Below, one piece after another: positions 32,073-33,650 of a DNA stretch of 64,000 nucleotides (position 1 is the stretch's first letter; the number at the start of each line of letters is the position of its first letter). This DNA comes from Escherichia coli. GTDB lineage: Bacteria; Pseudomonadota; Gammaproteobacteria; Enterobacterales; Enterobacteriaceae. The stretch lies in NCBI RefSeq assembly GCF_003334355.1, contig NZ_QOWP01000021.1; one strand, written 5' to 3'. The position numbers were made by a program, and so were the translations under genes. The notes beneath the pieces are model-generated. The model had not been told where the DNA came from, made no database searches, and was given only the letters and a program-made list of their open reading frames with translations.

Positions 32073-32825
32073 ATGACTACTGTTAACCAGATCTCTGATG
32101 CAAACATTACATCCTCCCTCCCACCGAAAATTCGCGAAGCGGTGGAAAAAGTTAAGGCAGCAAAAGCTGTCTGGCAGGAAGAACGGCGAAAACAAACTGA
32201 AGCTGCTGCAATGATTGAAACTATCCGTAAACGTCAGGAAGATACAAAAACGGAAACGCAGGCGCTTAATGATGAATGGCGAAACCTGTTTCGTGAGAAT
32301 CAGGGAAATATGACACCACGCATGAAAAAACTGCGGGCAGAAATCGCCCTCGGACGCGAAACACTGGATGAGTTCGAAGATTTGCTGGCAGCTCAGGCGG
32401 CAGAAAATGAATTCCTGCCATGGAAAACTGCGGATGCTGCAAACCACTACATCAGCGAACATAATCGCCTGATTGAAACTCATGCAGTGTGGCTCTGGAA
32501 TGAGTTTATGAAGGAACACGGCCAGAAACTTATTCAGATCCTTGGACTGTTGAAAATGACTCTGGGCCGAAGCGCTTCTGCTGTTATCGGTGTAGTTCAT
32601 ACCGTAAACGACCCCGAAAGTGTGCTGAAGCAATTTATCAGCGAGCAACTCACCACTCCGGCACTGTCCTGTAACGTATCTTCAACGGATGATATTACCC
32701 TGCCGGGGATCAGCATTTATGCGGACGATAAAGCCATCCAGGATGCCAGACAATCCCCCAGCCCTGCAGCGCGTTCACGGATGCTTAAACAGCGTGACAT
32801 GGTTAAAGGGGGCGAGAAGAAATGA
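32073..32825 (+). CDS. Sid-like (capsid size determination) candidate, first gene of the late leftward-type operon
   Basis: ORF track 32040 (TTG) to 32825; preferred ATG at 32073 with GGAG 7 nt upstream (250 aa). Assignment by size and position relative to the Ogr/Delta gene; coiled-coil-rich. Confidence 0.45.
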   Translation: MTTVNQISDANITSSLPPKIREAVEKVKAAKAVWQEERRKQTEAAAMIETIRKRQEDTKTETQALNDEWRNLFRENQGNMTPRMKKLRAEIALGRETLDEFEDLLAAQAAENEFLPWKTADAANHYISEHNRLIETHAVWLWNEFMKEHGQKLIQILGLLKMTLGRSASAVIGVVHTVNDPESVLKQFISEQLTTPALSCNVSSTDDITLPGISIYADDKAIQDARQSPSPAARSRMLKQRDMVKGGEKK

Positions 32826-33376
32826 ATGCCGGAACCATTACTCAGGAAGCTCTCAACGATTACCGCTCGGCGATAAAAAGCTGGCTGACACTACGTAATA
32901 CGCAAAGTACCTACCAGCTTCGTCTGGCGGCTCTGCTGGATACTGAAGAAAAACCGGCAGCATATGCCAGCCAGCTTGAGGAGCTTCGTGAGCGTCTTGC
33001 TGTCCTCGAATGGCAGATTAACTGTGCTGCACGGGATGGTCTTTATGCTCACCAGATTGTGCTGGAGAGTTGTGTTACAAGCGCAACGGAAAACTTCATG
33101 AGCGAGCATGGTGATGCACTCACTGACGCACTGGCTCCTTTTCTTTGCGCTCCATACGGGCTTGAGGCGGCAATGAAAATATTACGAACCGCTGTAGCCC
33201 GACAAACGGAAGTGCGTACTCCGGTAATTTCAGCAGCATACAAGAGCATTATCGACGAAACCGGATTAACGGTGGATGCATCAATGTACGCTGATGCTTC
33301 AGCCAGTTTCACCCCGGCACAACATAAAGTTTTCCTGGCCCGCCTTAACCGACTTAATGAAAAAGGAGGGTACTGA
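32822..33376 (+). CDS. Psu-like (polarity suppression) candidate
   Basis: 184-aa ORF overlapping the previous stop by 4 nt; assigned by size and position between the sid-like and delta-like genes (inference). Confidence 0.4.
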   Translation: MNAGTITQEALNDYRSAIKSWLTLRNTQSTYQLRLAALLDTEEKPAAYASQLEELRERLAVLEWQINCAARDGLYAHQIVLESCVTSATENFMSEHGDALTDALAPFLCAPYGLEAAMKILRTAVARQTEVRTPVISAAYKSIIDETGLTVDASMYADASASFTPAQHKVFLARLNRLNEKGGY

Positions 33377-33377
33377 T

Positions 33378-33650
33378 ATGGCCCTGAAGTGTCCTGAATG
33401 TGGGACGGTCGCTCACGCCAGAACCAGCGCCTATGAAGCTCCATCGGTTAAACGCTCATGGTATCAGTGCCAGAATCTGGAATGTTCCTGCACATTTACC
33501 GCTCTGGAAAGCGTGGATACGATAATTATGAAGCCTTGGCGCAATGAACAGGAATCAGACAAAGAACAAATGCCAGAAAAACAACAGCAAACTCTCAACC
33601 GCTATGGCTCCGCGTCAAAGCTGTCAAGCCGTCAGCAAATTCCTGTCTGA
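33378..33650 (+). CDS. Ogr/Delta-family zinc-finger late transcription activator
   Basis: Start at internal ATG 33378 with AGGAGG upstream; MALKCPECGTVAHARTSAYEAP...YQCQNLECSCTF resembles Ogr (CPLCQHAAHARTS...HQCQNVNCSATF). Confidence 0.8.
   Translation: MALKCPECGTVAHARTSAYEAPSVKRSWYQCQNLECSCTFTALESVDTIIMKPWRNEQESDKEQMPEKQQQTLNRYGSASKLSSRQQIPV

Follow-up and report, generated by a model that had tools for sequence, protein, structure and literature searches.

A sid-psu-delta gene block in Escherichia coli as the probable late operon of a P4-like satellite prophage

The three genes at positions 32073 to 33650 of a 64,000-nucleotide (nt) stretch of an Escherichia coli genome (contig NZ_QOWP01000021.1; the whole stretch is called the window here) are very probably the late operon, of the P_sid type, of an apparently complete P4-like satellite prophage at ssrA, belonging to a lineage with the gene order sid-psu-delta. 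This is the best explanation of the block, and it rests on the homology and fold of all three proteins, on the gene order, on the way the promoter boxes are arranged and on the other core genes of such a satellite being there too. An earlier note on the same DNA had placed a tandem-duplicate Delta between sid and psu in P4, and had been left with two alternatives, that the order differs here or that the middle open reading frame (ORF) had been wrongly assigned. That layout agrees with the P4 record NC_001609, which has sid at 9583-10317, delta at 10314-10814 (166 amino acids, aa) and psu at 10888-11460. It is the first alternative that is upheld, as the order in the window is sid-psu-delta and not the canonical sid-delta-psu of P4, and the second fails, as the 184-aa product of the middle ORF matches Psu in Pfam, in the PHROGs, in the PDB and as a model. 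The features of the operon are as follows.

31983-32000, plus strand: upstream Ogr/Delta box TGTTCTGTCACTGACACA (TGT-N12-ACA), beginning at -90 relative to the sid ATG
32021-32038, plus strand: promoter-proximal Ogr/Delta box TGTATGGGCATCGGCACA, beginning at -52 relative to the sid ATG
32073-32825, plus strand: sid-like gene, homologue of the external capsid size-determination scaffold, 250 aa from ATG
32822-33376, plus strand: psu gene, homologue of the polarity suppression and capsid decoration protein, 184 aa
33378-33650, plus strand: delta gene, 90 aa from ATG, with one Ogr/Delta zinc-finger module
33672-33698, plus strand: putative intrinsic terminator, a G+C-rich stem of 8 bp with a loop of 5 nt, followed by six T

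The three ORFs of about 250, 184 and 90 aa that had been noted in that order are present in the ORF list and in the sequence, all co-directional on the plus strand. They are real genes and not chance ORFs, since genes of a block of this type are annotated by the Prokaryotic Genome Annotation Pipeline (PGAP) and the block is matched in many complete E. coli genomes: of 5426, 857 have a match to part of it, and in 233 of these the match spans 80% or more. For the P4-type block 1072 complete E. coli genomes were matched, 867 of them over at least 80%. With regard to the junctions, the 4-nt figure given earlier for the first is correct, as there is an ATGA overlap at 32822-32825 in which the psu start overlaps the sid stop; the second had been given as 2 nt and is a 1-nt spacer, with TGA (33374-33376) followed by a T and then the ATG at 33378. 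There are ribosome-binding sites for sid (GGAG, 6 nt 5' of the ATG) and delta (AAGGAGG, 33363-33369). An upstream TTG at 32040 in the sid frame would give a protein of 261 aa, and the delta frame, taken from stop to stop, begins at 33276.

The 250-aa protein belongs over its full length to phrog_6165 (E-value 1.8e-94), and P4 Sid, Psu and Delta, scanned against the PHROGs, fall into phrog_6165, phrog_6366 and phrog_603, the same families as the window proteins. Both phrog_6165 and phrog_6366 are labelled “Psu-like”, which reflects the distant paralogy of Sid and Psu (PMC7552001; PMC8628076). In pairwise BLASTP the protein is 23% identical to P4 Sid over 212 aa (E 2e-6), and among PDB sequences its best match is Sid (7jw1_E, 1.8e-6), with Psu at 0.014. 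An AlphaFold2 model, for which an exhaustive search supplied an alignment of 31 sequences, has a predicted local distance difference test score (pLDDT) of 85 and superposes on Sid 7jw1_E with template-modelling (TM) scores of 0.73/0.77 and a root-mean-square deviation (rmsd) of 3.9 A; on Psu the values are 0.41/0.53 and 11.6 A. In the model there is a long stem of helical structure, the linker at about 200-218 is of low confidence and residues 231-249 form a C-terminal helix, all of which fits the architecture described for Sid, with a linker loop at 200-219 and the gpN-binding helix alpha6 (PMC7552001). There is also a weak match to the Pfam Psu family (3.5e-6, residues 113-239), and in NCBIfam no model was found for the Sid-like or the Psu protein. 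Fold and homology together support the protein as a Sid homologue, and the sid-like call, first made on size and position, is borne out by the family it shares with P4 Sid, by the PDB sequences and by the superposition. The names given by PGAP to this homologue differ among genomes, “septation initiation protein”, “hypothetical protein” and “phage polarity suppression protein” all being used for the window gene and its homologues in survey loci L002, L003 and L018-L020. None of the three fits the Sid assignment, and the RefSeq naming could be corrected.

For the 184-aa protein we have a match to Pfam Psu (PF07455) at 5e-35, membership of phrog_6366 at 8.6e-73, 28% identity to P4 Psu over 179 aa in pairwise BLASTP (E 7e-14) and Psu 3rx6 as the best PDB sequence match (4.6e-12). 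The structure prediction that had been proposed as a check against the Psu fold gave a model with pLDDT 83.5, which superposes on 3rx6 with TM scores of 0.79/0.78 and an rmsd of 3.0 A. Sequence and model thus support the protein as Psu, as had been suggested for the middle ORF, and neither it nor the 250-aa protein belongs to an unrelated family, which the earlier note had named as the outcome that would count against its calls. Two database proteins from outside the window, P0007 and P0020, are fused ORFs with both Psu and Ogr_Delta Pfam domains (267 aa, 80% identical to the window Psu; 283 aa, 99% identical to P4 Psu). They are probably frameshift or read-through products of neighbouring psu and delta genes.

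Pfam places one Ogr_Delta domain (PF04606) at residues 4-50 of the 90-aa protein (E 2.6e-16); by hidden Markov model (HMM) domain count the protein has one, and P4 Delta alone has two. Its zinc-finger motif, C5-X2-C8-X22-C31-X4-C36, is the CX2CX22CX4C of the Ogr type (PMC3931495), and all four cysteines are invariant across 14 aligned Ogr/Delta sequences. It had been described as one CxxC...CxxC finger, and the single Ogr-type finger stands, with the second pair corrected from CxxC to CX4C. The protein falls into phrog_603 and in pairwise BLASTP is 34% identical to the N-terminal half of P4 Delta (E 4e-11) and 27% to the C-terminal half (E 3e-8). In the 14-sequence alignment it is 36% identical to P2 Ogr and 30% and 20% to the two P4 Delta halves. 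These, with those for Sid and Psu above, are the alignments that had been proposed to P4 Sid, Delta and Psu and to P2 Ogr (23%, 27-34%, 28% and 36% identity respectively). Identity to the one-module Deltas of satellites with the P4 order is 34-46%, and against the NCBIfam Ogr equivalog NF007241 the score is 60.1 bits, below the curated cut-off of 116. The comparisons support the third ORF as encoding a single-module Ogr/Delta protein. Beyond the finger, a C-terminal tail LNRYGSASKLSSRQQIPV (residues about 73-90) is conserved in the E. coli, Pseudocitrobacter and Erwinia members, with a variable linker before it; it is absent from P2 Ogr, and the Deltas of P4-order satellites differ there.

The two predicted Ogr/Delta boxes 5' of sid have the TGT-N12-ACA consensus (PMC3931495) and would provide the dyad of a late promoter. 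In P4 the boxes 5' of sid are also at -90 and -52, offsets identical to those in the window. The upstream box is present in every other P4-like locus examined, at -88 to -91 (-76 in one), and the proximal box is at -50 or -52 in all the other sid-psu-delta loci (L004, L018, L019, L020). The proximal box overlaps a -10-like hexamer, CACAAT at 32035-32040, which would place the start of transcription near 32046. At the other end of the operon, the hairpin after delta has a minimum free energy of -15 kcal/mol, with a z-score of -2.75 against shuffled sequences, and is predicted to end transcription of the operon. A simple terminator scan did not list the 33672-33698 hairpin, the likely reason being that its stem can run on into the stretch of T.

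Two other features lie 5' of the boxes. A motif, TTTCTCTGGCTAGCC at 31955-31969, is about 15-30 nt 5' of the -90 box and within an imperfect palindrome at 31952-31979. Nearly all P4-like loci, whichever of the two gene orders they have, keep the motif in the form CTTTCTCTGGC(A/T)AGCC, and the P4 version is CTTTTCCTGGCTTGCC. Further upstream, at 31715-31915, there are several (G/A)TGAA(C/T)A(G/C) octamers, for example ATGAACAC, ATGAACAG, GTGAACAG and GTGAATAG, in the A+T-rich region between the AlpA-like gene and sid, and the origin of replication (ori) of P4 is annotated at the equivalent place. We take these octamers to resemble the reverse complement of the type-1 repeats of P4 ori.

The gene order needs to be seen against what is known of the family. 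The organisation of P4 is found in 77% of type A P4-like elements (Moura de Sousa & Rocha 2022, PMC8628076), and the psu/delta swap, the most frequent exception to the P4 order, in 20% of P4-like elements (PMC8628076), so that gene order does not define the family in the literature. Delta homologues shorter than P4 Delta have also been noted (PMC11718236, Fig. 9 legend). Both the swap and the short Delta are thus already known, and the window block is an ordinary variant in these respects.

To see how the two relate, we compared loci obtained from a profile scan of genome contigs with a Psu alignment (14 loci), from the E. coli matches and from two exact-protein look-ups, and classified them by BLASTP and HMMs. 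It is a small sample, and some of its loci had also served to train the HMMs. The sid-psu-delta order was found in 9 loci representing about 6 distinct lineages, all with a one-module Delta of 90-93 aa. Besides the window itself they comprise three E. coli elements closely related to it, two further E. coli elements that are more distant, one of them in O157:H7, and loci in Pseudocitrobacter, Erwinia billingiae and one metagenome contig. All have a Psu of the window type, 42-58% identical among genera and about 28% identical to P4 Psu. Eight loci, in Citrobacter, Enterobacter, Raoultella and Tenebrionibacter, have sid-delta-psu with a Psu 60-65% identical to that of P4, and every Delta in these too has one module (72-87 aa). 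We had considered a one-module Delta to be tied to the swapped order, and reject this, as it is found with both orders; the two-module form is in P4 alone and the one-module form in all 17 other surveyed loci. On this small survey, then, the swap tracks a divergent Sid/Psu lineage (E. coli, Pseudocitrobacter, Erwinia) and the one-module Delta is the general state, independent of the swap.

The operon is part of an element that spans about 27.2-39.5 kb of the window, and E. coli strain 789 has an annotated element of the same layout. The other features of the element and its flank are listed here.

27456-29789, minus strand: alpha primase (phrog_2249, 1.2e-223)
29804-30127, minus strand: DUF5375 family protein
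30124-30351, minus strand: 75-aa ORF (phrog_10110)
30348-30899, minus strand: Ash family protein (epsilon/Ash; PF10554, 1.9e-29)
30899-31159, minus strand: AlpA-like helix-turn-helix protein/excisionase (phrog_2790)
31160-32072, no strand: A+T-rich intergenic region with the ori-like octamers
32073-33650, plus strand: late operon (sid, psu, delta)
33851-33878, no strand: sequence AAGCGGGCAGGCGGGCGGGGCAGCGCAC, resembling a cohesive-end site (cos), between delta and the defence cargo
34076-37601, plus strand: Hachiman HamA/HamB, between the delta/cos-like site and the integrase gene, a known P4 defence hotspot
37694-38152, minus strand: 152-aa ORF between HamB and the integrase gene (int)
38182-39381, minus strand: integrase, annotated in the syntenic locus L003, adjoining ssrA
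39566-39928, minus strand: ssrA

All seven core components of a type A element, int, psu, delta, sid, alpA, epsilon/Ash and alpha, are present, the definition being that of Moura de Sousa & Rocha (2022). Alpha scores 104.9 bits against TIGR01613, the P4-family primase model, just below its cut-off of 108.7. The 75-aa ORF probably belongs to a 75-aa family that is present in 61% of P4-like elements and absent from P4 (PMC8628076).

The similarity of the 33851-33878 sequence to cos is weak: it matches the P4/P2 cos junction AAGCGGGCG|GGCGAGGCGGGG at 19 of 21 positions over AAGCGGGC.GGCG.GGCGGGG, and at 13 of 19 when taken ungapped over the 19-nt end. We suggest that it is cos-like since its position fits the cos-adjacent hotspot of P4-like elements (PMC9122126). 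In the hotspot itself HamA (313 aa, DUF1837, PADLOC 1.7e-135) and HamB (860 aa, helicase, E 0) are encoded by genes of low G+C content, about 34-35%. Related E. coli elements carry other cargo at this site: an AAA ATPase with an S8 peptidase, retron St85, an ABC-three-component system and SIR2.

Several points weigh against reading the block as the late operon of a complete P4-like satellite. TGT-N12-ACA occurs in the window at chance frequency (15 found, 14 expected), and for this reason the evidence for the boxes lies in their position and conservation. The window proteins share little identity with their characterised P4 counterparts (Sid 23%, Psu 28%, Delta 20-34%), and because of this level of 20-34% identity no match to the block or to its 250-aa and 184-aa proteins was given by blastn in its distant mode or by tblastn in a phage collection that includes P4; the homology is visible in pairwise or profile comparisons and nowhere else. 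Of the ten residues through which P4 Psu contacts Rho (R43, D49, E56, P171, A172, Q173, M175, R179, K180 and Q183; PMC11718236), just six are identical (P171, A172 and Q173, in a TPAQ motif) or conservatively replaced (R43K, D49E, K180R) in the window protein, and E56, M175, R179 and Q183 differ. DNA binding, capsid redirection, Rho inhibition and helper dependence are for the window proteins predictions drawn from homology and fold. Finally, when direct repeats of at least 12 nt that might be attachment (att) sites were sought between the ssrA side and the alpha side, there was one 12-mer and no long repeat.

That last result would also fit a decayed remnant of a cryptic P4-like prophage, with ORFs intact by descent and no working late operon. 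Many enterobacterial P4-like elements are degraded, and sid or delta is truncated or missing in survey loci L005, L008, L009, L015 and L017; also, the neighbouring ypjA region corresponds to the place where K-12 carries the defective prophage CP4-57. However, the block has three full-length ORFs with ribosome-binding sites and a coupled junction, its promoter boxes and putative terminator are intact, all seven core components are present, and identities of 42-87% across genera argue for selection on the proteins, so that we regard decay as improbable. An equally improbable reading concerns the 250-aa protein, which could be a second, longer Psu paralogue with a decoration or anti-Rho role, in a lineage with no dedicated size-determination protein. 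The paralogy of Sid and Psu makes this worth considering, and the protein does match Psu models weakly (Pfam at 3.5e-6 and phrog_6366 at 5.2e-8) and the Psu of its own window at 5e-5; one genome has its homologue as “phage polarity suppression protein”, and Foldseek, ranking the model by E-value, puts Psu 3rx6 (1.4e-4) marginally ahead of Sid (3.1e-4). Against these stand the full-length match at 1.8e-94 to the PHROG that contains P4 Sid, the PDB sequence scores (1.8e-6 for Sid, 0.014 for Psu) and the far better global superposition on Sid (rmsd 3.9 A as against 11.6 A), as well as a Sid-like length (250 aa compared with 244), an elongated stem and the position of the gene as first after the promoter, like sid in P4. 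Least probable of all, and hardly to be entertained, is that the 90-aa zinc-finger gene is not a satellite delta but an ogr that was taken up from, or left by, a helper phage of the P2 type. Its product, like P2 Ogr (72 aa), has a single module, is 36% identical to Ogr, slightly more than to either half of P4 Delta, and also matches the NCBIfam Ogr equivalog model. The score there is, however, 60.1 against a cut-off of 116, the gene is 1 nt 3' of psu and in the same operon in every locus of the lineage, no P2 structural genes adjoin it, and satellites with the P4 order too carry one-module Deltas (72-87 aa), 34-46% identical to it.

Two observations on the wider window may be added. The 12-mer extends to a 23-nt near-repeat, GTATACCTAA(A/G)CGTATACCAATA, with 22 of 23 positions alike, at 27210-27232, just outside alpha, and at 39433-39455, between int and ssrA. 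The copies may be arm-type sites of the integrase or the ends of the element. Well outside the element, at 19293-19368 on the plus strand, ARAGORN reports a tRNA-Met (anticodon CAT), and its counterpart by synteny in E. coli 789 carries the annotation tRNA-Ile, as would fit a lysidine-modified CAT isoleucine tRNA.

If the block is indeed a satellite late operon, a mechanism can be proposed by analogy with P4 (PMC7552001, PMC11718236, PMC8628076). When a P2-like helper is present, the helper Ogr or the satellite Delta would bind the two TGT-N12-ACA boxes and activate the sid operon. Sid would cage hexamers of the helper capsid protein externally, giving small capsids that fit only the satellite of about 12 kb, and Psu, whose translation would be coupled to that of sid by the ATGA overlap, would decorate the capsid and inhibit Rho. 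The one-module Delta would reinforce its own operon and trans-activate the helper late operons. P4 Delta acts as a covalent dimer, and the one-module Delta would presumably be a non-covalent dimer, like Ogr. Transcription would stop at the hairpin after delta, just 5' of the cos-like site and the defence hotspot.

The block carries little weight as a discovery, and what it does show is that a P4-like late operon can be recognised by a reader from raw sequence. It is P4 that is atypical of its own family, in having a two-module Delta. The swap marks a deeply divergent Sid/Psu lineage that is missed by ordinary BLAST against P4, and this may matter for satellite-finding pipelines seeded on P4 Psu. 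Each of Sid and Psu groups with its own P4 counterpart, so the duplication that gave rise to them predates the split of the two lineages. It is possible, but we think rather unlikely, that sid-psu-delta, where sid and psu are neighbours and translationally coupled, is the ancestral order, left by the tandem duplication proposed as the source of Sid and Psu, and that the P4 layout was derived from it by insertion of delta between the two followed by its internal duplication. The tail of the window Delta (RYGSxSKLSxRQQIPV) may supply a function that P4 gained by fusing a second module.

The known system closest in organisation to the window block is that of the swapped P4-like satellites (PMC8628076), which have the same arrangement and differ in nothing of substance; the window copy has the Hachiman genes in its hotspot and lies at ssrA. 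Many RefSeq E. coli genomes, O157:H7 among them, hold near-identical or related copies, and the hotspot cargo is a different one in each.

The block has the three gene families of the P4 late operon (P_sid), likewise closely packed on a single strand, and its flanks also correspond, with the AlpA-like gene and an ori or ori-like region on one side and cos or a cos-like sequence, the hotspot and int on the other. It differs in that psu and delta are exchanged and that Delta is a 90-aa protein with one module, where P4 has a tandem pair in 166 aa. The overlaps differ accordingly, as sid overlaps psu (ATGA) in the window, whereas in P4 it overlaps delta and there is a 73-nt gap before psu.

P2 Ogr resembles the window Delta in its single CX2CX22CX4C module and in the dyad shared by the target promoters, but identity is 36%, and the window protein has a C-terminal extension of about 35 residues and is encoded in a satellite operon. 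The one-module Deltas of satellites with the P4 order are likewise single-module proteins of a P4-like late operon, but with delta between sid and psu. The Delta of retronphage phiR73 is also short.

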